Below are positions 3,261 to 60,965 of a DNA stretch of 64,000 nt, in pieces. The DNA comes from Torpedo marmorata. Its lineage: Eukaryota. The notes beneath the pieces are model-generated. The model did no database searches and was not told the DNA's origin. It saw only the letters and a list, made by a program, of their open reading frames with translations. The stretch lies in assembly GCA_977017645.1 (NCBI GenBank), contig OZ360222.1, forward strand, positions 188,666,001-188,730,000, read 5' to 3'. The stretch's first letter is position 1, and each line of letters begins with the position of its first letter. A program made the position numbers and the translations under genes.

Positions 3261-6200
3261 TTTTTTAAAAAATATTTTATTTAAAAATTTTAAATCACAA
3301 AATACATAAAATAAAATATAAAATTATCAAAGTATTTGTGATACATTTTCACCCCTCCTCCCTCCCTCCCCTCCCCAACCCTCCCAACCCCACTAATCTA
3401 ATAAAAATAAAAATATAAAATAAAAATAGAAAAAGAAGAAGAAAAAAGAAAGAAAAAGATAGAGTAAGGAGAATGCCAATCTATAAACTAATTCTATTAT
3501 AGAGGTCAAGTATGCCAGTAGATCCGATACCCAGAGATCTTCAAATCCTTAAACCAACAACTTTCATATTTGGGCTCCAAATTTTTAAGAAAAAATGATA
3601 TTTGTTACGTAAATTATAAGTAATTTTTTCAAGTGGTATACATGAACGAAGTTCTGCATGCCATCTTTCTAATCCTAAATCTAAATCAGATTTCCAAGTA
3701 ATAGCAATACATTTCTTTGAAACAGCTAAAACAATTCGCAAAAACTCTATTTGATACATACCGGTATTTAATTTCATCTTAATACTAAATTTTCTAATAT
3801 CTCCAAACAAAAATATCAGGATCCATTGGAAATGTAATCTTAAATACTTTATCTAAAAATTTTTTAACTTTCAACCAAAAATCATAAACTTTTGGACAAA
3901 ACCATGTAGAATGTACAAAAGAACCTTCCTCTTTATTACATCTAAAACATAAACCTGATAATGTCGGATTAAATTTCTTTAGTTTTTTAGGTGTTAAATA
4001 TAATTGATGAAAAAAATTGTATTGTACTAATCTATATCTAACATTAATAATCTTCGTCATACTTAGTTTACATAATTCTTTCCAATGATTTTCATCTATT
4101 GTTACATTCAAATCTAATTCCCATTTTAATCTTGATTTATGAATTCCTACCTTAGGCACTTTCCTCTGAAACAATTTATACATTTGAGAAATAAATTTAT
4201 TGACATCTCCTTTAGTAACTAATAATTCTAATTCATTCTGTCTTGGTAAAATCAAAGCATAACTTAATTTCTCAATCAGAAAAGCTCTAATTTGATAATA
4301 AGCAAAAAGTGTATTATCTAATATATTAAATTTATCTTTCATTCTTTAAAAAGTAATAAATTTTCCAGCTTCAAAACAATCATTAATTTTCTTAATTCCT
4401 TTTTGAAACCAAATTTTAAATAATTGATTATTAATAGTAAATGGAATAAGTCCATTTTGATATAAAGGCATCCTTGAAGAAATCAATCCTTTTCCTCCTA
4501 TTTCCTTATCCGTCTTATTCCATATTTCTAACAAATGTTTAAGAACAGGAGAATTTTTCTTTCTTGTTGATATTAATTTAGAATCCCATTTATAAATAAC
4601 TTCTTCTTTGGAATCTTCTCCTATATTATTTAATTCTATTTTAATCCAAGCAGAAGATTTAGTTGAATCAAAAAATTCATTAACAAATTTTAATTGAGCT
4701 GCTTTATAATAATTTTGGAAATTAGGAAGTTGTAAACCACCCATTTCATAATTCCAAGTTAACTTTTCCATACCTACTCTTGCTAACTTTCCTTTCCATA
4801 AGAATTTTCTAATAATTGAATTTAAATCTTTAAAAAATTTTTGAGGAATTTCATAAGGAATTGATTGAAAAAGATATTGAATTCTTGGAAAAACATTCAT
4901 TTTAATACAATTTACTCTTCCCATTAAAGTTATAGGTAAATCTTTCCAATTTTCTAAATCTTTCTTTATTTTCACAAATAATGGTAAATAATTTAATTTG
5001 TATAAATTAGCCAATTTTGTGTCAACCCTTATTTCCAAATATTTAATTCCTTCCTTTACCCATTTAAATTGTGTAATTTCTTTACATCTACTATAATCCC
5101 CTTGTGATAATGCCATAATTTCATTTTTATCAGAATTAATTTTATATCCAGATATTTCCCCATATTCTCTCAATAACACAGACAGTTGTACTAAGGATGT
5201 AGTAGATTTTGTCATATATATCAATACATCATCTGCGAATAAACTAATTTTATGTTCTTCCATTCCAACTTTAATACCAACTATTTTAGGATCTTTTCTA
5301 ACTAATTCTGCCAAAGGTTCTATCGCCAAAATAAATAATGCTGGTGACAAAGGACATCCTTGTCTAGTAGATCGAGTCAAAGGAAATTTTGAAGAAATTT
5401 GTCCATTTGTAACTACTTTAGCAGATGGTTCTTTATATATAGTTTTAATCCAATTAATAAATGTATTTCCAAAACCAAATTTCTCCAATACCTTAAATAA
5501 AAAATTCCACTCTAATCTATCAAAAGCCTTTTCGGCGTCTAAAGTTAAAACTAATGGTAAATCTTCCTTCTTTTTATGTAAATTAATTAAACTAATCAAT
5601 CTAGCTATATTATCTTTTGAATATCTATTTTTAATAAAACCAGCTTGATCGACATGAATTAAATCTGGTAAATAATTAGCCATTCTATTTGCTAAAATTT
5701 TTGCCATTATCTTATAATCTACATTTAATAATGAAATAGGACTATAAGATTCAGTTTTCAATACATCTCTATCTTTCTTTTGTATAACTGTAATTATTGC
5801 ATTTAAGAAAGTATCTGGTAATGAGTGAGTTTCCGTAATTTGATTCAATACATCCATATATGGAGTTATTAATAAATCTTTAAACTCTTTGTAAAATTCT
5901 GATGGAAATCCATCTTCACCTGGAGATTTACCACTCTTTAGAGAAGTAAGAACTTCATTAACTTCCCTCATTGAGAAAGGTAAATCTAAAGATTCTCACT
6001 TTGAGTATTCAATTTAGGTAATATAATTTTAGATAAAAATCTAGTAATTTTAGAGTCGTCTTGATCAATCTGAGATTTATATAAATTCAAATAATAATCT
6101 TTAAAAGAATCATTTATTTCTCGAGGTTTATAAGTTATTTCTCTAGAGTTCTTTTTCCTTATAGCATTTATAGTTCTAGAAGTTTGTCCTTTTTTAATTG

Positions 6201-8950: not shown

Positions 8951-9493
8951 TGTTGTGTGGGAAGGGAAAAATTCGGTGGGTTCAAAGAATAGTGGGTCTG
9001 GACACAGGCTGAATGCAGAAACAATCTTTATTGAAACACACGTAAGGGGATTGCAACAGGGATAACACACACAAGTAAAACACAAAAGTCTGCCTACACT
9101 GTGGTTGAAGTAAAAACACAATGCTGGAGAAACTCAGCAGGTCAAACAGTGTACTTTATATAGTAAAGCTAAAGATACATAACCAACACATGCAAGTATT
9201 CTCAATCATACAACGCAGTGCAACTAGTCGCATCGGACTTATTACTACCGATACTAGCAGCTGTTCATACAGACTACCATACGCTACCCACTGTTCCTTG
9301 TCTGAAGTGGGCTCGGCTCAGATTCTATACAACTACATCAGTGTACAACAACTCCGATCCCTATGTAGTGCACACCTTACCAGCGACTCCTCCAGTGTTG
9401 TCCACAGTAGAGTTCGTCTCAGGGCCGAAGAGGAAGAGCTACTGCACATGGTGGACTTTATAGTACAGTAAGCTGGAGGGTCTGGCCCAGGCA
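8951..9493 (-). repeat. ERV 5' LTR, containing a Penelope-tail insertion at 9078-9184
   Basis: TG...CA termini on the minus strand, AATAAA at 9027-9032, abuts the PBS on one side and interrupts a CR1 ORF on the other; the insertion is flanked by aacac(ac/tg)caagta-type direct repeats at 9064-9077 and 9185-9198. Confidence 0.82.
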
Positions 9494-44668: not shown

Positions 44669-45159
44669 AGGGCGTGTGGATGGGGGTTGATTGCTGGTGG
44701 TACACGCTCAATGCCACTTGGCTCCCATTAACACCACTTCAAAGGAACACAGTACCAAACCACTTTCCAGTTTAAACATCCATTACCAGAAGATGCTGGA
44801 ATGGGGAGCAGAAACACCAAACTGAGGAACTCAGCGGGCCAAGCAGCGTCTGTTGAGGGAAAGCAGTTGTCTCCAGGAACTAATCACCCAGAAATGGCCT
44901 GAGCAAAAAAATCTCTCAAGGGACATTCAGAAAAATTCATTCTTTTCATGGCTTGGGATGTTGTTGGTGACATGGTGGTGAAGCTGGTGGTGTCACTGCC
45001 CTCAGCTCCAAAGGCCCCTGTTCCAATCCTGACTGAGGAAGGCTCTTGATCTGAAGTATCGACAATTCTCTCCCTCTCCCCTCCCTGGTGCGACTTGACC
45101 CACTGAGTTCCTCGAGCAATTTATCTTTTACAATAATTGTTACATTGGTGGATTATATG

Positions 45160-45605
45160 TAGTTAAACACGAAAATCTGCAAATGCTGGTGTTGAATGCA
45201 ATACACAAAGCTGTTGGAGAAACTCAGCAGGTTATGCAGTATTGTAGGAAGTAGAGGCATTCAATGTTTGAGCGTCTCGTCTGGAATCTGGTAATACAGG
45301 TAGATGTTTAAATCAAAGGGTGGAGGGAGGAGCACTAGCAAGAATAGGTGGATACAGGTGGGAGGGTAGAAGAGAAAAAAGCTGAGGATAGCTCTCTGAT
45401 AGAAGGAAGGGGTGTTACCTCTTACCTGTTAGCCTGTACTCTTGCTGACCTCACCTCTTCCCCCCCCCCCCCAATCTTTTTATTCAGGCATCTACCTGTT
45501 TTTCCAGATTACTGACGAAGGGCTCAGGCCCGAAACATTGAATGCCTTTCACTTCCTAAGGATACTGCATGACCTGCTGAGTTTCTCCATCGCATTTGTG
45601 TATAC
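45160..45605. mobile_element. Miniature inverted Penelope-tail element with a hammerhead-like motif
   Basis: Inverted arms (ggagaaactcagcagg / cctgctgagtttctcc); CTGACGA-A-GGGC-tcag-GCCC-GAAAC at 45512-45536; 12-bp TSD gtggattatatg at 45148-45159 and 45606-45617. Confidence 0.85.
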
Positions 45606-46584: not shown

Positions 46585-47500
46585 TGTTACAAATTCAAAC
46601 CAGCAACGACAGAAGACGCAATGCAAAAGGGGTAAAATTTGAAATTTATATTTATTAAAGATAATTAAACACATAATTTCACAACAATTAACCCCACTAT
46701 AAACGTCTATAAACACTATCCTTATCTAAAGAGTGTGTGTGTGTGTGTAAAGCCCAGACCATTACAGTCTGTGCCCAACCCTTATGTAAAAATGAAAAAC
46801 CTTCCCCAAAACCCCCAGGTCAGTCATAAAAACAAGTCAGTCCCAAAAATACAGTCCACAAAAATTCACTCTCTATGTTCAGGTTCCAAATTCAGCTCTG
46901 TGTGCTGGCAAGAAGGACTTCTTAATGAACGTTGGAGAGAGACAATGACTGTTTATGCTTGGCTTGCTTCTTCTCTGATGACTTTCCCTTCTGGTATTTT
47001 CACAAGGATTGCGAATCCAAATCCGTTCTGGATTGAGGCGTGTACTTGGATCTCACAGCCGGTCTCGCTGATCTCACGCCTGTTCTTCACAAAAGCGGCC
47101 CTCAACTCAGGATTTTGCCATAATCACCAAGGCCTTGTTTTTGGTCCCAACCTTTTCCCCTGGGATGCACAAGCCTGGATTTTTTTCTGATTCAGAAGGC
47201 TCTGTGTTCTTCTGTCAACCTTTTCTCTGGGATGCACAAGCCTGGATCCTGCTGAGTTCTCCCGCCTTTGCAACTCCAAAACTGCCACTGATTCAGTTTT
47301 TCACTGCCTTTTCAAAAAGTCCAACCAACCAAGTATGTATCTTTTCACAGTCTGTCTCCCCCTGGTGTCTCTCTCTGGTAAGTACAAGAAATCCTGGGCA
47401 AGTTAACTCTTTCAGTACCTGGTCCCAGTGTGTACTCCAAAAGACTTCATCCTTCCTGCTGACCGTCCTCAGTCCAAATGGTCAGTCATGGTCCATAACA
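46585..47500 (-). mobile_element. Solo LTR, gypsy-like termini
   Basis: TGTTA...TAACA ends; flanks cctg/catg (3 of 4 match); inverted homologue of 51316-52222. Confidence 0.85.
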
Positions 47501-49770: not shown

Positions 49771-51315
49771 TGAACATTCATATTTCAAAAAATTAAAAAA
49801 AGATTCTTAGAGCACAGTAGTTTGTACATTAGGTCATTAGGTAACCTTAAGCATAAACTCGAAGATGTGAAAACTTTGTAAAAAGAACTTTAAAAAATAA
49901 TTATTATAAAATGAAAATTTTCGTGAGACCCTTGAACTTGATGTTCCTGTGCAAATTTTTTGATGTCAGGCTCCAAATTGGATAGTGATAGTCGAAGGTC
50001 ACCTCTTGTTGTGATATCAAGTCTGTTCCTGGATTTTGTCAAGGAAACTACCTTGCTGAATCCACATTCAACTAAGTATGTTGAGGGAAAAGCAATGAAA
50101 AATATTTCAGCCTTTTCCCACAGTTTTGGAAATCTATTTGGCAGATTACTCTTAACCCAAAAATCTTTTATAAATCGACTGAACTTGTAGCGTGCAATTA
50201 TATCATTCTGTCTAGAATTTCTGCGTCAACATCGGTGGGTTGTTTATTAAATGGATTTAATATTCAACACTGGATATTGAGGATGAACAGGTCATTAAAT
50301 CTTTCTTGCAGATCTGTGTGTATTTGCTTTAGGTGTTTCACGTAAACAGTTTCCATGCCCACCCTAAATACCTTGGGGCCTCTATTGTTAAGGATTTTAG
50401 TCTATCCCCCCCGTCCCCCCAAATGTGCTGTGGCCCCCAGGAGGGGCTGTAGGGTCCCTGTTGAGAATGGCTGATCTGGAGCCCTTCCACACGGTTGGAG
50501 CTTACTACAGTCAGTGGGGCTGCAATTTGCACCCACCAGTTACTCATCCAGGCTACTCTGACAAACCCTCTCAAACCTGTGACCTGTACCTCCAGAGAAG
50601 TCCAGGGTAGCAGGTGCAGGGGAACACCACCACGTGCAGATTCCCCTGCAAGTCACACACTGTCTAGCTGGTTTTCTTTCATTCATTTAAACATTGTCGC
50701 TGAGTCTAAATCCTAGAAAAGAGATGAGGAACTGCATCTCCCAGAAAGTAGGGAACCTGTAGAGTTCTCTGTCCAGTGAAGCAGCGGACGTATTTGCCTC
50801 ATTGAATGTATTTAAAACACAGATTGATTTTTGAATAGTCGGGAATTAAGTGTCTTGGGGAACGGACAGGTAAGTGGAGTTCAGGGCCAGATCAGGCATG
50901 GAATGGTGGAGCAGGCCCGATGGGCCAAATGGCCTAGGCCTATTTCTTATGTCTTCCACTTTCCCCAGAAGGTCTGTACAGTTGCTGAAGAACAGGTCAG
51001 CATCACTTTCTGAAGGGGAATATGTGGAATTAGTTGGTGCGTTTGCATTGATGTCTTTGTCCTGAAAAACAAGACTGGATAATACGTATTCAGAGTTTCT
51101 GGTCTCAGTGGGAATGGGGGAGAGGTTGGAGGGGTTGCAGAGAAAAAGGAGGGGGAGTTGGGACTGGGTGTGTTATGCTCAGTGAGTGAATGCTGATAAT
51201 AGATCCTTTTGATGTCTTCAACTTATTTCCCACGTTGTTTATGAGGAGTGAAACACGAAAGTTTGCAGACGATGAGATTGTACTTAAAAACACAGCGTCC
51301 ACAGGAGGTAAAGAT

Positions 51316-52222
51316 TGTTATGGACCATGACTGACCATTTGGACTGCGGACGGTCAGCAGGAAGGATGAAGTCTTTTGGAGTATACACTGGGGCCAGGTA
51401 CTGAAAGAGTTAACTTCCCCAGCTACTTGGTGTACCCAGACAAGATACATTGTTGCACTCTTGGTGTACCCAGACAGAGAGAGACCAGAGAGAGAGAGAC
51501 AGACTGTGGACAAGATACATTTGTTTCACTTTTGCAAAAAGCAGGTGCAGATTTCTGCAGGAAAAGCAGACAGTTGTAAGTTGCAAAGGCTACAGGACAC
51601 AGCCAAATCCAGGCTTGTGAAAGCCAGAGAAAATCACTGGCAGAAGAGCACATGGCCTCTTGTCTCAGAGAGAAATTCTGAGAAAAAGCAACTTCTGTGG
51701 AGAACAGGCGTGAGATCAGCGAGACTAGCTGTGAGATTCAAGCACACGCCTAAATCAGTGGTATACTGATCTGGAACTTGCAATCCTTATGAACATACAA
51801 GAAGGGGATATCATCAGAGAAGAAAACAAGTATTTGTAAGCATAAACAGTCATTGTCTCTCTCCAACGTTCATTCAGAAGTACTTCTACCAGACACAGAG
51901 CTGAATTGTAGCCTGAACTTAGAGAGTGAATCTTGTGGACAGTATTATTCTCTCTTTTTTGACTGACTTGTTTTTTATGACTGACCTGGGGTTTTTTTGG
52001 GAAAGTTTTTCCATTTTTACATAAGGGTTGGGCACAGACTGTAATAGTCTGGGCTTTACACACACACAGACACACCTTTTAGATAAGAATAGAGTTTATA
52101 GACGTTTATAGTGGGGTTAATTGTTGTGAAATTATATGTTTACTTGTGTTTAATAAATAATAATTTCAATTTTACCCCTTTTGCATTGCGTCTTCTGTCG
52201 TTGCTGGTTTGATTTTGTAACA
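51316..52222 (+). mobile_element. Solo LTR, gypsy-like termini
   Basis: TGTTA...TAACA ends; perfect 4-bp TSD AGAT at 51312-51315 and 52223-52226; AATAAA near the 3' end. Confidence 0.9.
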
Positions 52223-52366
52223 AGATATATTTATAAACATTAAAATAACTGACCTGGGGAATGGAATAACAGATAGCATGGAAGGGGCGGTCTGGATGCA
52301 GAATTTAAATCGTATGCACTTTCCTGCTGTTAATAACCTGCAAGTTCTTGCTCTTACTGCTGGTTG

Positions 52367-52542
52367 AGTAAAAACACAATGTTGCAGAAACTCAGCAGGT
52401 CAAACAGTGTCCTTTATACAGCAAAGATAAAGATACATAACCAACGTTCTTGGGCTTGAGCCCTTCATCATGATATTGTATCTTTGTTATATAAAGTTCT
52501 CTGTTTGACGTGCTCGAGTTTCTCCTGCATTGTATTTTTACT
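52367..52542. mobile_element. Miniature inverted Penelope-tail element
   Basis: agtaaaaa...tttttact ends, inverted arms, and a degenerate hammerhead-like motif on the minus strand at ~52443-52472. Confidence 0.8.
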
Positions 52543-52544
52543 GT

Positions 52545-54150
52545 AGTAAACACGAAAATCTGTAGACACCGTGGATGAAGTAAAAAACACAAAAGCTGGA
52601 GAATTCAGCAGGTCAAACAGTGTCTTTTATGTAGCAAAGGTAGAAATACATAACCGACGTTTCAGGCTTGAGCCCTTCTTCAAAGTATGAGAAAATGCCG
52701 GCAGACGTCCGAACAAAGGAGTGAGGGGGGAAGGGGGGTGGCAAAGGCAGGAGATGATAGGTGGAGAAAGGAGGGAGGGGACAGCAGCAGAGGGGGAGGA
52801 GGGATGGCTGGTTGGGTGGAAAAAACAGGAAGTACAGGTGAGGGGGAGGGGAAGGGAACAACAAGCTGGTTTAGTGGAAAGCAGAAAAGTCAATGTTAAT
52901 TCCATCTGGCTGGAGAGTGCCGAGACGGAAAATGAGATGTTGTTCCTCCAATTTGCGGGTAGTCTGGGTGGGATAGTACATGAGGCCATGGACAGACATG
53001 TGAGCGTGGGAGTGTGACCCAGAATTGAAATGGTTGGCTACTGGGAGGTCGCTGTTGTTGCGGACGGAGAGGAGGTGCTCAGCAAAGCGGTCTCCCAATC
53101 TACGACCGGTCTCTCCAATGTATAGAAAGCCACAAAGGGAGCACCGGATGCAGTAGATAAGTCCTCTGGATGTACAAGTGAAGTGTAGTTTCACTTGAAA
53201 GGCCTGTTTGGGGCCCTGGACCGTGGTGAGGGGGGAGGTGTGGGCGCAGGTGTTGCACCTCCTGCGGGCACAGGGGAAGGTTCCGGGGGTGCGATGGGTG
53301 GGGAGGGACGAGTGCACGAGTGAATCACGGAGGGAGCGGTCCCTACGGAAGGCCGAGAGGGGAGGAGAAGGAAAAATGTGTCTGGTGGTGGGATCCTGCA
53401 GCAAGTGCCGGAAATTCCGGCGGATAATGTGTTGGATGCGGAGGCTGGTGGGGTGGTAGGTGAGGATGAGGGGTATTCTATGTTTGTTGCGTCTGGGGGC
53501 AGAGGGGGCCAGGGCAGATGAGCGGGAAATGGAGGAGATGCGGGTGAGGGCTGAGTTGATGGTGGTGGAGGGGAAGCCACGTTTGTGGAAAAAGGCAGAC
53601 ATTTCAGAAGATCTGGAGTGGAACACCTCATCTTGGGAACAGATGCGGCGGAGGCGGAGAAATTGAGAGAAGGGGATGGAGTCCTTGCAGGGGACAGGGT
53701 GTGAGGATGTGTAGTCCAGATAGTTGTGGGAGTTGGAGGGTTTGTAGTAAATGTCGGTGGAAAGCTTGTCTCCCGAGATGGAGACAGAGAGATCCAGGAA
53801 GGGGAGAGTGTTATCGGAGATGGACCAGGTGAGTTTGAGATCGTGGTGAAAGTTGGATGCGAAGTGGATGAAGTTGACAAGCTCATCGTGGGTGCATGAG
53901 GCAGCCCCGATGTAGTCGTCGATATACCGGAGGAAGAGATGAGGGGTCTTGCCTGTGTAGGCTTGCAGCATGGATTGCTCCACAAAGCCCACAAACAGGC
54001 AGGCGTAGCTGGGACCCATGCGGGTACCCATGGCTACTCCTTTGATTTGGAGGAAGTGGGATGAGTTGAAGGAGAAGTTATTGAGAGTAAGGACAAGTTC
54101 TGCCAGGCGGAGGAGGGTGGTGGTAGAGGGTGACTGGTCGGGTCTTTGGT
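52545..54150 (-). mobile_element. 5'-truncated Penelope-like element, left arm (RT + GIY-YIG)
   Basis: ORF 52871..54241: KGVAMGT, RYIDD, CARRRCNTC linker, GLIYCIRC...LYIGETGRRLGDRFAEH. Confidence 0.95.
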
Positions 54151-54163
54151 TCTTCCTGGAAAT

Positions 54164-55923
54164 AACTAGTTTCATCTTACCTTGACTCCATCTTTTCTCC
54201 CCTGGTCCAATCCCTCCCCACCTACATCCGCGACACCTCACATGCCCTCCATCTCCTCGATGACTTCAGATTCCCTGAACCGGACCGCATCATCTTCACC
54301 ATGGATGTCCAATCCCTTTATACCTCTATCCCCCACACAGAAGGTCTGAAAGCACTTCGCTTCTTCCTGGACCAAAGACCCGACCAGTCACCCTCTACCA
54401 CCACTCTCCTCCGCCTGGCAGAACTTGTCCTTACTCTCAATAACTTCTCCTTCAACTCATCCCACTTCCTCCAAATCAAAGGAGTAGCCATGGGTACCCG
54501 CATGGGTCCCAGCTACGCCTGCCTGTTTGTGGGCTTTGTGGAGCAATCCATGCTGCAAGCCTACACAGGCAAGACCCCTCATCTCTTCCTCCGGTATATC
54601 GACGACTACATCGGGGCTGCCTCATGCACCCACGATGAGCTTGTCAACTTCATCCACTTCGCATCCAACTTTCACCACGATCTCAAACTCACCTGGTCCA
54701 TCTCCGATAACACTCTCCCCTTCCTGGATCTCTCTGTCTCCATCTCGGGAGACAAGCTTTCCACCGACATTTACTACAAACCCTCCAACTCCCACAACTA
54801 TCTGGACTACACATCCTCACACCCTGTCCCCTGCAAGGACTCCATCCCCTTCTCTCAATTTCTCCGCCTCCGCCGCATCTGTTCCCAAGATGAGGTGTTC
54901 CACTCCAGATCTTCTGAAATGTCTGCCTTTTTCCACAAACGTGGCTTCCCCTCCACCACCATCAACTCAGCCCTCACCCGCATCTCCTCCATTTCCCGCT
55001 CATCTGCCCTGGCCCCCTCTGCCCCCAGACGCAACAAACATAGAATACCCCTCATCCTCACCTACCACCCCACCAGCCTCCGCATCCAACACATTATCCG
55101 CCGGAATTTCCGGCACTTGCTGCAGGATCCCACCACCAGACACATTTTTCCTTCTCCTCCCCTCTCGGCCTTCCGTAGGGACCGCTCCCTCCGTGATTCA
55201 CTCGTGCACTCGTCCCTCCCCACCCATCGCACCCCCGGAACCTTCCCCTGTGCCCGCAGGAGGTGCAACACCTGCGCCCACACCTCCCCCCTCACCACGG
55301 TCCAGGGCCCCAAACAGGCCTTTCAAGTGAAACTACACTTCACTTGTACATCCAGAGGACTTATCTACTGCATCCGGTGCTCCCTTTGTGGCTTTCTATA
55401 CATTGGAGAGACCGGTCGTAGATTGGGAGACCGCTTTGCTGAGCACCTCCTCTCTGTCCGCAACAACAGCGACCTCCCAGTAGCCAACCATTTCAATTCT
55501 GGGTCACACTCCCACACTCACATGTCTGTCCATGGCCTCATGTACTATCCCACCCAGACTACCCGCAAATTGGAGGAACAACATCTCATTTTCCGTCTCG
55601 GCACTCTCCAGCCAGATGGCATTAACATTGACTTTTCTGCTTTCCACTAAACCTGCTTGTCTTTCCCCCCCCTCCCCCCTCACCTGTCCTTCCTGTTTTT
55701 TTCCACCCACCCAGCCATCCCTCCTCCCCCTCTTTGCTGCTGTCCCCTCCCTCCTTTCTCCACCTATCATCTCCTGCCTTTCCCACCCCCCTTCCCCCCT
55801 CACTCCTTTGTTCCGACGTCTGCCGGCATTTTCTCATACTTTGAAGAAGGGCTCAAGCCTGAAACGTCGGTTATGTATTTCTACCTTTGCTACATAAAAG
55901 ACACTGTTTGACCTGCTGAGTTT
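54164..55923 (+). mobile_element. 5'-truncated Penelope-like element, right arm (Cys-rich linker suggests the Neptune group)
   Basis: Open frame from ~54165 (LVSSYLDSIFSPLVQSLPTYIRDT...MDVQSLYT) to the stop at 55650; hammerhead-like TTGAAGA-AGGGCTCAAGCCT-GAAACGTC at 55841-55868. Confidence 0.95.
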
Positions 55924-55936
55924 TTACTGCTGGTTG

Positions 55937-56420
55937 GCGATTCCACCGGATTTTTCAGCGCCGCGCAGCCGCGTTTTGTCCGCTTTCGGCTTCCATAACC
56001 GGAAGACTGTCCGTGGGTCTTCGTCTTCCCGATGACTGAAGTGTGGGACTTTAGTTCCGCGTTAACGGCGGCCCGGTCGCTGCGCTCAGGGTCACCCCAG
56101 GCCGTGGATCATGGCGTTCCGCAAAGTCTTTCAGGTCGCCTGCGGTATCGCGGGCACAGCGGCCGTGGTGGTGGCTGCTGCCGCCACTCAGCGGCGCGGC
56201 GATGGCAGGGTGAAAGCGGCGGCGGCGGTGAGCTGGAGTCCCGGGACTGGAGGCTGGGACTCCAACTGGGACAAGTGAGTGGAGGCCGCGGTCCGGGGCC
56301 GCGCCTGGGGTCCGGGGTCCGGGGCCGCGCCTGGAGCCCGCGGTCCGGGTCGCGCCTGGAGCCCGCGGTCCGGGGCCGCGCCTGGAGCCCGGGGCCGCGC
56401 CTGGAGCCCGGGGCTGACCA
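55937..56420 (+). promoter_or_regulatory. PGAM5 CpG-island promoter, 5' UTR and exon 1 region
   Basis: Dense CpG; ETS-like CCGGAAG at ~55999-56005; GC-rich degenerate tandem units (ggggccgcgcctggagccc) at 56285-56415. Confidence 0.75.
56111..56274 (+). CDS. PGAM5: PGAM5 exon 1 (mitochondrial Ser/Thr/His phosphatase)
   Basis: MAFRKVFQVACGIAGTAAVVVAAAA...GGWDSNWDK (transmembrane segment plus WDxNWD motif); donor GTGAGT. Confidence 0.93.
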
Positions 56421-57659
56421 TTGACACTAATGGTGCATGAAGCAACGTTGCCACCCACTCCCCCGGGGGTTGCACACTAAAACCAGGGACAATGTCGTGG
56501 CCAGTTCACCGTCTCGTGTGTTTGAGGTGTGGAGGGAACCCAGAGCAGCTGAAGAAAGCCTCCACGTCCACGGGGAGAGCAGGCAGCCCCCGGGTGAGGA
56601 TGGTACCGGGTCTATGGCTCTGTCAGTGACTCCACCAGTTTTTTTGCCACCCAGTTATAAAAATAACAAGGGACGTGGATAAGGAAACGATCCCCGTTTA
56701 GAGATATCTGCAGCTATAGGCATAGTTTTAAAGTAAGGGGCAAGAGATGGAGGGGGATGTGAGGAACAAATTTCCGTTGGTTAAAGTCCAGAAGCGCTGC
56801 CTTTGTGGGTGACGGAGGCTTGCCACTCTCATCGGATGAGCAGGTGCAGAGGAGGCTGCAGGCTGTGCTGGAATTGATGTATCCTAGATGGCTAGTATGC
56901 ACATGGTGGGGCTGAATGATTCTGTGACCATACTGCACTCTTGAACCGAGTGCACCGTTGTCTTAGCCTTTGGGAAAAGTATCCCATGGTGTGACTTGAA
57001 GAAGATCCTGGTGGTGCAGGGCTGTAACCCCAGTATCAATGTTCATTATTCTGAATACATCAGAAAAGCAGTTTGTTAATTTGCTGTTTGTGCAAGTTAT
57101 CTGTGAGCACATTGGCTACCCATCTTCATAAATTCTAGCAGTCAAGAATTCAGCATTGGGTGCCAAGTGCTTAGGGTAGCCAAGTTTTTTGTGGTTCATC
57201 CAGGTTTGGTGAGTTTTATTTACTTGAAGTTACTTTTAAAAAATCAGGGTTATTTCCTTTACAGTAAAACTCCAATAATCCACCTCTGATTATAATGGAA
57301 GTCCCAACATCTGACTCAATAAGTGGCATCCGCAATGTCTCAGTGCCACAGCGTTCAATCGTAAATGCCACAGCGTGCTGTCTATGTGGAGTTTGTCGGC
57401 TTCTCTGTGACTGTGTGAGTTTCTCCCACGTCCTAAAGGCATGCAGGTTGGTGGGTTAATTGGCCACTACAATTCCTATAGTGTATAGGTGAGTGATGGA
57501 ATCTGGGGGATGTTGACGAGAATGTGGAGAGAATAAAAATAGGGATTAATGTAGGATGAGTGTAAATGGGTGGTTGATGGCAGTAACGTGATGGGCCGAA
57601 GGGCCACTTTCCGTGCTCTATCGCTCTATGATTCGTATATAATTGAAAATAAATAAGAG

Positions 57660-58815
57660 CAATGTTAGGCCATCCGGCCCATCGAGCCTGTTCTGCTATT
57701 CAATAAGATCATGGCTGATCTGGCCATGGACTCGGCTCCACCTATTCACCTGTTACCCATAACCCCTAATTCCCATCCTATGCAAAAATCTATCTCTCTG
57801 CGTCTTAAATCTATTCAGGGAGGCAGCCTTTACTGTTTCATTAAGCAGAGAATTCCACAGATTTACTACTCTCTGGGAGAAGTAGTTTTTTTTTAGACAT
57901 ACAGCACAGTAACAGGTCATTTCGGCCCACGTGTCCGTGCTGCCCAATTTACACCCCATTAACCTACACTCCCGGTATGTTTCGAACGGTGGGAGGAAAC
58001 TGGAATCCCCGGGGAAAACCCACGCAGACACGGGGAGAACGTACAAACTCCTTACAGACAGCGCGGGATTCAAACACCGGTCCCGATCGCTGGCGCTGTA
58101 AAGATGGAGTGCTAACCGCTACGCCAACCGTGCCACCCTTTTCATCTCTGTTTTAAATCTACTCTGCTGAATCTTGAGGCTCCGTCCCCTAGTTCTCGAC
58201 TCGCCTGCCGGTGAAAATAAATTCCTGCTTCTATCTTATCTATTCCTTTCACAAGGGGCAAATATTTTACACAGAGGGTGGTGGGTGCCTGGTGTAGTGG
58301 GGGAAGTAGATACATTTTAACAAAAAGCAGTAGCATTTTAAGAGGCTTCTCGATGGACACATGAATATGAAGGGGATGGAGGGATATCTGTCAGTGCAAG
58401 TAGATTTTTTAGCTTTGATTTGTACATGTTCAGCGGAGACATGTGGGCCGAAGGTCCTGTTCCTGTGCCTTAGTATTGTATGGTCCATAATTTTGTACGT
58501 TTCTATGAGATCATCCCTCATCCTATAAACAGCAGTGAGTATAGTCCCTGGCGACTCAGTCTCTCCTCATAAACTAACTCCCTCATTACCGGAACCAATC
58601 ATGAACCTCCTCTGCACCGCCTCCAAAGCCAGAATATCCTTTCTCAAGTAAGGAGACCAGAACTGCATGCAGTACTCCAGGTGTGGTCTTACCAGTACCC
58701 TGTACAGTTGCAGCAGAACCTCCCTACTCTTAAATTCAATCCCTCTGGCAATGAAGGACAACATCCTGCTTGCCTTCTTGATTACTTACTACATCTACAA
58801 ACAAACCTTTTGTGA
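57660..58815 (-). mobile_element. CR1 3' fragment interrupted by a V-SINE (57894-58138) and an opposite-strand CR1 tail
   Basis: ORF 58567..58764 FIARGIEFKSREVLLQLYRVLVRPHLEYC; FSQRVVNLWNSL; V-SINE motifs. Confidence 0.8.
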
Positions 58816-59202
58816 AGATCTCAATATTGCTGTCTAGTGAATTTTCCTGGTTTTAGCCAATTCAATATTGCAGAATTTGAAATGTGGGTGCTGGTAATTG
58901 CGGTTAGATCCCAAAAAATGTGTGAGACAAGAGACGGTATTTTGTTTGCGTGTCCATGCTAGTTTAAAAATGAGCATCTCTGCTTGATCCCATCTTCCAG
59001 CTCTTAGTTTCTTCATTCACTTCCCATACAAAAGGTTGTTCCAGTGTATAATGTGGACATAGTGCTGGGTATCGATTGCTGTTGGGTGTTAAACTAGTGC
59101 TCAGCTGGGTAACCAGCTCCCAAGGTGTAGATTTCAAAGGGATTAGTGCAGTGGGATGTGATTTCATTGCCAAGCCATTAATGTCTTTCTTTTGTTCTTC
59201 AG

Positions 59203-59378
59203 GCGTGAGCCAATTTCTCGTATTAAACCCAACCAGAAAAATAAAGAGGCCTCTGAGGACTTAACCACACAGCTTGAGAACTACAAGGTCAAAGCCACGA
59301 GACACATCTTCCTCATCAGGCATTCCCAGTATGACTTGACAGCCACGACAGACAAGGACAGGATCCTGACATCGCTGG
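59203..59378 (+). CDS. PGAM5: PGAM5 exon 2
   Basis: REPISR...KATRHIFLIRHSQY...DRILTSLG (catalytic RHS). Confidence 0.95.
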
Positions 59379-60123
59379 GTCTGTACTTCCTGCAAGTTGT
59401 CTGCTTTTAGCAACGTAAACCTTCTGAATTTAGTATTTTTCATCATTTCTCTATCTGCAGGTGCCTATGAACAGGAGGGAAGCCTTGAGCCCAACAGTGG
59501 GATCGTGGCTGAACTGTAACTTAATTCTGTACAACCCTCTTTCCCCAGAACTCTTTAAACCCTTGGCTGTGAAAATATCAATCTCGTATTTAAAATTAAC
59601 CACAGAGAAAGCATCCATTGTGGTACCTGGAAGAGAGCAGCTGAGTGTGGACGTTTCCTGACATTACTCCTGAGAGGCTGACACAAATTTCTGGGACTCC
59701 TGAAGCAGTGGAAATAGATTCCACCACCAGACTTGCCTAGCCCTCCCCTTTCACCATTCGAAGGGACCATTCCTTTTGTGAATCCCCACTTCCCTCTTCA
59801 CCAACCGATCCGTGTCTTATGGTGCATACCCATGCAAACTTGGGAGATTCAACATCCAGGGACCTTAGTGGTCCTTCCAGGTGAAGCAGTGATTCTCTTG
59901 TACCTCTGCCAATCCAGTGAGCAGCATTCTTTGCTCACAGTCTGGTGACCTCAGCATTGGGGAAACAAAACGCACATTTGGGTAACTGCTTTGCAGAGCA
60001 CCTGCATTCAGTATTAAGTACAGTATTTGAGAGAAGTTCCTTATGGATAATGGTGACTGGTTTAAAGCTTTGTAGCCTGTGGTCTGGGGTTCTTGTGTTT
60101 ATGGAATATTCATTTCTCTCCAG

Positions 60124-60849: not shown

Positions 60850-60965
60850 ACATAGATGTGTTGGAGAAACTCAGCAGGTCACCCAGCATCCATAGGAAGT
60901 AAAGGGTAACCAACGTTTCGGTCCTGGGCCCTTCATCAGCGTTCTCCAGTCTGGCCTGTGTATTG
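60850..60965 (-). mobile_element. Penelope-tail element with an intact hammerhead-like core
   Basis: Minus strand CTGATGA-AGGGCCCAGGACC-GAAACGTT at ~60912-60939; related copy at ~61450-61640. Confidence 0.72.

Follow-up and report, generated by a model that had tools for sequence, protein, structure and literature searches.

How two truncated copies of a retroelement come to lie head to head, and whether everything enclosed by a pair of direct repeats arrived in one insertion, are the questions raised by a locus in a 64,000-nt stretch of the Torpedo marmorata genome (contig OZ360222.1 of assembly GCA_977017645.1, positions 188,666,001 to 188,730,000; this whole stretch is referred to as the window and its own numbering is used). 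The element is a Penelope-like element (PLE) coding for a reverse transcriptase (RT) and a GIY-YIG endonuclease. According to the original prediction, both strands of one staggered cut were primed independently, the two cDNAs were joined at their truncated 5' ends and the product, together with an extra mini-palindrome, forms a single 3.5-kb unit bounded by a 13-bp target-site duplication. We favor two nested insertions of endonuclease-bearing (EN+) PLEs, with two-ended priming of the younger pair, at a probability of roughly 0.7. The mechanism first proposed is largely right; the single 13-bp-bounded unit is probably wrong. The palindrome is real, young and ordinary for its class, a new copy in an insertion layout already described as typical. 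The value of the locus is as an entry to a young and abundant family whose integration scar can be counted.

The limits of all features are given in Table 1. In a self-alignment of the window the inverted arms (52602-54150 and 54371-55922) are identical at 1535 of 1553 aligned columns, which bears out the predicted pair of ~1.55-kb inverted, 5'-truncated copies; 15 of the 18 differing columns fall in the last 300 nt. Arm limits were defined by comparison with L069, a natural full-length copy used as reference. The left arm was thought to stop near 52605; it aligns with its partner from 52602 but extends to 52545 through a long tail of 34 nt, present at one end of the pair only. In full-length copies, the sequence of this tail is the stretch linking the 5' pseudo-long terminal repeat (pLTR) to the start of the open reading frame (ORF). 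The right arm ends without it at reference position 4073, ~23 nt short of the usual short-tail site (other short arms end at 4085-4103). The two halves of the inverted repeat are indeed separated by 220 nt, but this presumed spacer consists of a 13-nt filler and 207 nt of right-arm sequence. The 10 repeated nucleotides of the filler are the sense-strand bases immediately 5' of the left arm's break. Judged from its letters, the filler is a partly templated insertion, and the 28-mer spanning the junction has one match only in the 6.2-Gb genome.

Both frames are stop-free and differ at a single residue (T/A) over 425 shared codons, as had been noted (HAH/HTH) and taken as a sign of youth. The insertion is young, but arm identity is a poor clock because most differences between the arms, the T/A change included, are alleles found in other genomic copies and not post-insertion damage. 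In its 3' untranslated region (UTR), the right arm alone carries six alleles of another subfamily (reference positions 3772, 3813, 3814, 3840, 3861 and 3933), which recur at 7-40 other loci and are missing from the left arm. Two family alleles are carried by the left arm only, and a rare allele at reference 3742 (8 loci) is present in both. The only changes private to the pair are a single left-arm substitution and one right-arm C-rich cluster, which makes the pair very young; the divergence of the arms from their family is ~1%.

A search of the 6.2-Gb genome with the right arm gave 1306 candidates, 40 of which were scored, nearly all at 99%. The count of arrangements proposed earlier as a check was made in two samples: 39 other top matches to the 3' tail of the left arm (sample 1) and 34 loci representing the other long matches absent from sample 1 (sample 2). 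Both samples consist of top matches and are biased to young copies, sample 1 to one tail type and sample 2 to long arms. Head-to-head pairs make up 18/39 and 9/34 loci, respectively, i.e. 27 of the 73 other young copies. A direct repeat of 14-18 bp lies within ~10 nt of both outer ends in 25 of these 27 pairs versus 2 of 873 mismatched control pairs. The two pairs that lack one are L063, with 11 bp and one mismatch, and L103, with no repeat. One long and one short tail are combined in 26 of the 27 pairs, with a short-tail partner in all 18 pairs of sample 1 and the long and short combination in 8/9 pairs of sample 2. The central junctions all differ among the 28 pairs, window included. With every junction different and that of the window unique, the palindrome must be built anew at each insertion. 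The central junction common to several copies that characterizes an autonomous fold-back element, or one resembling a miniature inverted-repeat transposable element, was not found among them.

The 13-bp repeat is present as predicted, but it fits the duplication of an older insertion and not that of the young pair. It adjoins the left end of the mini-palindrome exactly, and the 5-nt overlap of its right copy with a tail end is a feature that family duplications often show. It lies 178 nt away from the young long tail, in contrast with the ~10 nt or less found at both young ends in 25 of the 27 other pairs. The mini-palindrome does exist and was predicted to belong to the same unit. Its arms are 83-87% alike to the young family. 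It was compared with 28 relatives (L032-L059), chosen by their likeness to the window stump with a query lacking the long tail, and differs from their column majority at 17 of 174 sites (7/107 and 10/67 per half). This divergence of ~10%, against ~1% for the young arms, sets an age gap between the two elements. No near-identical copy exists elsewhere: the best other full-length match among 2977 candidates in the genome reaches 88%, and a diagnostic 26-mer occurs once in 6.2 Gb. Insertions of this older kind have duplications of their own, since 20 of the 28 relatives are flanked by one scoring at least 10 versus 11 of 812 controls. In a unit bounded by a single duplication, the repeat would abut the young ends and the enclosed DNA would be of one age or have a source locus; the window has neither arrangement. 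The 13-bp repeat is most likely, from its position, the target-site duplication of the older mini-palindrome. The nesting of two events, first the old stump and then the young pair in the stump's end, is the simplest history and a highly probable one. At its right boundary, the young pair would have either a shortened duplication, for which a 9-bp repeat is the candidate, or a small deletion of target DNA. The letters also fit a variant: most of an old long tail, once at the right end of the stump, would have given way to the young pair, with a small loss of target DNA instead of a duplication.

Several observations speak against this history. The 9-bp repeat is statistically weak (43 of 873 control pairs score at least 9) and below the family norm, and eight of its nine letters also match the family's short-tail end. 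The shortfall of ~23 nt in the right arm persists under any reading. A clear long tail is missing from both ends of the stump, although all 28 relatives carry one or more, and the 13-bp repeat shows no mismatch although the stump is old. Old tail-like DNA was found within 30 nt of the ends in none of the 73 other loci, except for seven with their own 5' pLTR, and landing in old tails is therefore not a family habit. Finally, contigs of four sequencing runs were compared with 55860-56480, and one from a related organism (run X6, record 32) matches 55922-56308 and not the young arm. Its start at 55922 fits a recent insertion; it is silent on the presence of the stump. The segment 52325-52366 was considered as a decayed long tail of the stump. 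Its alignment beats 2000 of 2000 shuffles but is equaled by 65 of 2000 once its last 13 bp are left out, and its divergence well exceeds that of the stump's left half; it was not counted as the stump's tail.

A single event could be retained if the mini-palindrome had been carried along as a 3' transduction, with RT starting on a read-through RNA from the outer tail of the stump and the 13-bp repeat bounding the whole 3.58 kb. That repeat is near the family duplication size as well as perfect, and the stump's left half has the orientation of the left arm, its end coinciding with a normal start site. The capture of flanking DNA by PLEs has been published (Arkhipova et al. 2013; PMC3846280), and the related-organism contig does not run on into anything stump-like where the right junction lies, as an empty site would lead one to expect. 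The transduction nevertheless needs a source locus with the same stump, and none is seen because the diagnostic 26-mer is single in the genome. A carried relic of this kind was found in 0 of the 73 other loci. The scenario would still require an earlier long-tail copy landing exactly at the stump end and a deletion in the right arm, as well as two short-type ends, a combination seen in 1 of 27 pairs of the family. It is unlikely.

Under the nested history, a stump-sized head-to-head insertion (52367-52543) would have created the 13-bp duplication long ago. The young family would have inserted recently into the AT-rich end of that stump, where its GIY-YIG endonuclease would have cut both strands with a stagger that is about 14-15 nt across the family. 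Reverse transcription would then have been primed from either 3' end on the sense RNA of the element, the left arm starting at the distal site, hence its long tail, and the right arm at the proximal site, hence its short tail. Both cDNAs would have ended prematurely, at points 207 nt from each other, and end-joining repair would have linked the free ends with the partly templated filler. We infer this order of cutting and priming, and the repair pathway.

Priming of both strands of one staggered cut fits the family best, as first proposed, but the two primings look coordinated rather than independent. A long and a short tail are combined in 27 of the 28 old mini-palindromes too (P about 1e-7 at best-case even odds). 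Because pairs and old stumps are almost always of this composition, the ends are not chosen independently. Among the 28 junctions, 15 show an overlap of 1-12 nt (10 of them 1-3 nt), 3 are blunt and 10 have inserted bases, mostly traceable to the element. In the light of general repair knowledge, they look like end-joining of two free ends, and the predicted joining of two cDNAs at their truncated 5' ends is the best-fitting mechanism on the family evidence. The arms come mostly from one source, since they share 36 minority alleles versus 8.0 expected from other copies (27 pairs, with the window and without L098, which is too short). In 6/27 pairs (L070, L072, L100, L103, L131 and the window), at least two non-CpG family alleles are present in one arm alone. 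An accumulation of discordant alleles mainly in short-tail arms was discarded, as sample 1 had been selected on the sequence of the long-tail arm. The favored interpretation is that one complex primes both strands, one per start site, usually on RNA of one locus. Three points count against it: the allele sharing is also predicted by single-template models, the arm differences could result from later gene conversion, and no between-strand difference in start site was seen in vitro for a Poseidon enzyme (Frangieh et al. 2024; PMC11167929).

Such a single template could be the first cDNA or, as proposed by Arkhipova et al. (2013; PMC3846280), an antisense transcript; it would fold back and be copied into a hairpin, which would then be integrated. 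Besides the shared alleles, self-priming of this type would account for arm break points no more than 300 nt apart in 12/27 pairs versus 5.3 by permutation (P 0.0015), and L100 and L122 are near-perfect palindromes, the former centered on a 12-bp self-complementary word. Over all pairs, however, the break points show no rank correlation (Spearman 0.09), and the tails are difficult to reconcile with a cDNA template. The longer arm is the short-tail arm in 17 pairs, the long-tail arm in 8 and neither in 2 (n = 27, window included, L103 left out). A copy cannot gain a tail that is absent from its template, and a simple fold-back of the first cDNA therefore fails in these 17 pairs, where the arm owning the loop lacks the long tail of the shorter one. 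The window is among them, with a longer right arm devoid of the tail carried by the shorter left arm. The length excess of short-tail arms in itself is not significant (18 versus 8 with L103 counted, P 0.076). The antisense version passes the tail test, yet it offers no reason for the strict pairing of long and short tails, for blunt or filled junctions (13/28) or for different arm alleles (6/27). A self-primed origin of the pair is accordingly doubtful.

Separate insertions of the two long arms, head to head by chance, would explain the different subfamily alleles of the two 3' UTRs and the atypical outer repeat of the window pair, but no duplication is present at the inner junction, one common outer duplication flanks 25/27 other pairs and the rare allele at reference 3742 is common to both arms, which leaves this explanation highly improbable. 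A fold-back assembly artifact is very unlikely, and the least probable of all: the locus is known from the assembly alone, the search for sequencing runs having yielded none of this species (best word share 0.30), but 18 columns distinguish the arms, many of which reflect real family alleles, the two flanks are no mirror images, the filler at the junction is unique and there are 27 other pairs with duplications of their own.

A more detailed model is put forward tentatively. A Penelope ribonucleoprotein, probably a dimer, may act on a single staggered cut of 14-15 nt and prime its two strands in fixed roles, one strand from the distal and the other from the proximal start site. It would usually use RNA of one source locus, possibly one molecule, and the trailing enzyme would displace the leading cDNA. 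If this is true, the one-sided tail and the head-to-head inversion are two marks of one reaction, and the genome counts weigh against the published idea of antisense self-priming. Mosaic arms like those of the window would arise when a second RNA, or the 5' pLTR of the same RNA, is occasionally used. The origin of PLE inverted repeats and one-sided tails is called unresolved in the accessible text of two studies (PMC8557442; PMC3846280). The present counts (a stagger of 14-15 bp, one start site per strand, either arm being the longer and arms sometimes from different templates) provide sharp predictions for an existing in vitro system. No published statement of priming from one start site per strand was found for PLEs, in a search that most of the subscription literature lay outside.

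In L1 twin priming, cDNA synthesis is primed from both nicked strands, and microhomology or filler joins the two products into an inversion within one duplication. The Torpedo pairs would share with it the two-strand priming, the joined cDNAs and the single duplication. They differ from it in that twin priming splits one RNA into non-overlapping parts, whereas both window arms copy the same 3' region and each ends at a tail.

Inverted arrangements were said to be known in PLEs, and the literature agrees. As far as the accessible text goes, canonical EN+ PLEs are described with an adjacent inverted 5'-truncated copy and a one-sided tail of 30-40 bp (Craig et al. 2021; PMC8557442). The Torpedo family has the same order of RT and C-terminal GIY-YIG domain, the 5' truncation, the inverted copy at the 5' end, the 34-nt tail at one end and, in relatives, partial tandems. 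The difference is one of degree: both window arms are long (1.6-1.8 kb), without a direct pLTR or a full-length copy inside. Inverted pLTRs inside an 8-10 bp duplication are given as the typical Penelope structure for Pen2a_Av and Pen2_Av of Adineta vaga, with the head-to-head layout as the commonest, and the authors propose self-priming on an antisense template (Arkhipova et al. 2013; PMC3846280). These elements resemble the window in the inverted pLTRs bounding the insert and in secondary insertion into another Penelope copy, and differ from it by their duplications, about 14-15 bp in the Torpedo family. As to the priming proposed, tail geometry and arm alleles in the window family favor priming from both target strands. 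Inverted pLTRs are also listed as a known peculiarity elsewhere (PMC8969392). The enzyme tested in vitro is PAc, from Poseidon of Anolis carolinensis, which cuts and extends both strands. Its RT starts at two adjacent sites that define the tail, AT-rich targets are preferred, its own pLTR included, and a dimer is predicted (Frangieh et al. 2024; PMC11167929). The features that compare well are two start sites, cleavage and extension of both strands, AT-rich targets and, putatively, a hammerhead motif in the pLTR. Unlike PAc, the window family uses one start site per strand, and the accessible text of that study contains no treatment of inverted pairs.

The assignment of the element to the EN+ PLEs is supported by several features. 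A single ORF codes for RT followed by a C-terminal GIY-YIG domain, with open frames of 1164 and 1181 codons in the natural copies L102 and L125. In the window, the left-arm ORF ends at 52871 and the right-arm frame is open over 54166-55650. Pfam matches to RVT_1 (E 4e-6, right arm only) and GIY-YIG (E 3e-4 to 4e-4, both arms) are all just below the curated cut-offs, and a sequence search of the PDB with the right-arm protein gave no match. The 34-nt tail agrees with the 30-40 bp expected at one end of such elements, and an inverted 5'-truncated copy lies within a short duplication, atypically of 9 bp in the window. A 5' pLTR in partial tandem is seen in seven relatives (L069, L099, L102, L118, L125, L129 and L130) and not in the window pair. 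The young insertion was most likely dead on arrival, as both arms lack a 5' pLTR and, counted from its start, ~60% of the ~1170-codon ORF. The pLTR contains a putative hammerhead-like motif, so called for its resemblance to the canonical core. A search of 52000-56300 against Rfam returned seven matches, all far under the gathering score and mostly microRNA models on hairpins, with no hammerhead family. In many of the old mini-palindromes (L032-L059, a sample selected for stump likeness), the longer arm begins at reference 3985-3998, the upstream edge of the hammerhead-like core (3991), and not at the expected cut site (about 4019).

Table 1. Features of the locus, in window coordinates
Feature	Position	Strand	Remarks
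13-bp direct repeat, left copy	52354..52366	+	only two copies in the window
Mini-palindrome, 177 bp, tail-out; two pLTR (3'-end) stumps left by an earlier wave of this kind of element	52367..52543	.	arms 73% alike
9-bp repeat TTTTTACTG, left copy; candidate duplication of the young pair	52535..52543	+	1 nt from the young long-tail end (52545)
Left arm, young Penelope-like copy truncated at its 5' end (RT core to GIY-YIG, 3' UTR/pLTR, long tail)	52545..54150	-	99.3% to L069 over 1607 nt
Long tail of the left arm, 34 nt	52545..52578	-	same extension terminates most other copies
Mirror copy of the putative hammerhead-like motif	about 52648-52689	-	read from the sequence
Junction filler, 13 nt	54151..54163	+	first 10 nt repeat 54362-54371
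Right arm, young copy truncated at its 5' end and lacking the long tail	54164..55922	+	98.9% to L069; RVT_1 and GIY-YIG matches
Extra 5' part of the right arm (former spacer), 207 nt	54164..54370	+	unbroken match to the reference copy from 54164
Putative hammerhead-like motif of the pLTR	55835..55877	+	core-like TTGAAGA, hairpin, GAAAC; small hairpin folds
9-bp repeat TTTTTACTG, right copy	55921..55929	+	adjoins the right-arm end
13-bp direct repeat, right copy	55924..55936	+	only two copies in the window; first 5 nt also match the element's tail end
First coding exon, PGAM5-like host gene	56111..56276	+	175 nt past the insertion; weak match to PGAM5 N-terminal peptides (E 0.2); WDSNWD
Second exon, PGAM5-like host gene	about 59190-59380		RHIFLIRHSQY at about 59306

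Some members of the family deserve separate mention. The loci L084 and L131, like L105 and L126, are independent insertions at the same position of a repeated host sequence; the duplication is the same within each couple and the arm structure different, which points to target hot spots. Two copies, L082 and L087, run ~30 nt beyond the long tail into sequence ahead of the ORF start, which suggests a third, rarer RT start point. Many equal-scoring copies of one older subfamily are clustered on contigs C74 and C48 and on small contigs, probably inside a larger amplified unit.

The palindrome occupies the promoter region of a PGAM5-like host gene, its end lying 175 nt ahead of the start codon. The motifs RHIFLIRHSQY and WDSNWD, which we take to be those of PGAM5, identify this gene together with the weak match of its first exon. 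The pLTR points at the gene and, on sequence grounds, could change its promoter. A GC-rich tandem repeat of ~26 nt follows exon 1 (56270-56413). On the other side, the left flank was used to look for an empty second copy of the site, and the sole outcome was a high-copy repeat within the first ~165 nt of that flank. An LTR-like repeat lies to the left of the locus (51316-52230) with an inverted copy, 85% alike, 4-5 kb away (46585-47500); the final ~150 nt of the repeat to the left of the locus recur many times in the genome at 100% identity. The pLTR end of the Penelope-like element has left further old relics at 9078-9188, 45158-45603 and 60859-60938, and 45201-45603 is itself an inverted pair of such relics, 76% alike. 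Another short repeat is present in opposite orientations at 50730-50936 and 57666-57887, 76-88% alike in pieces.

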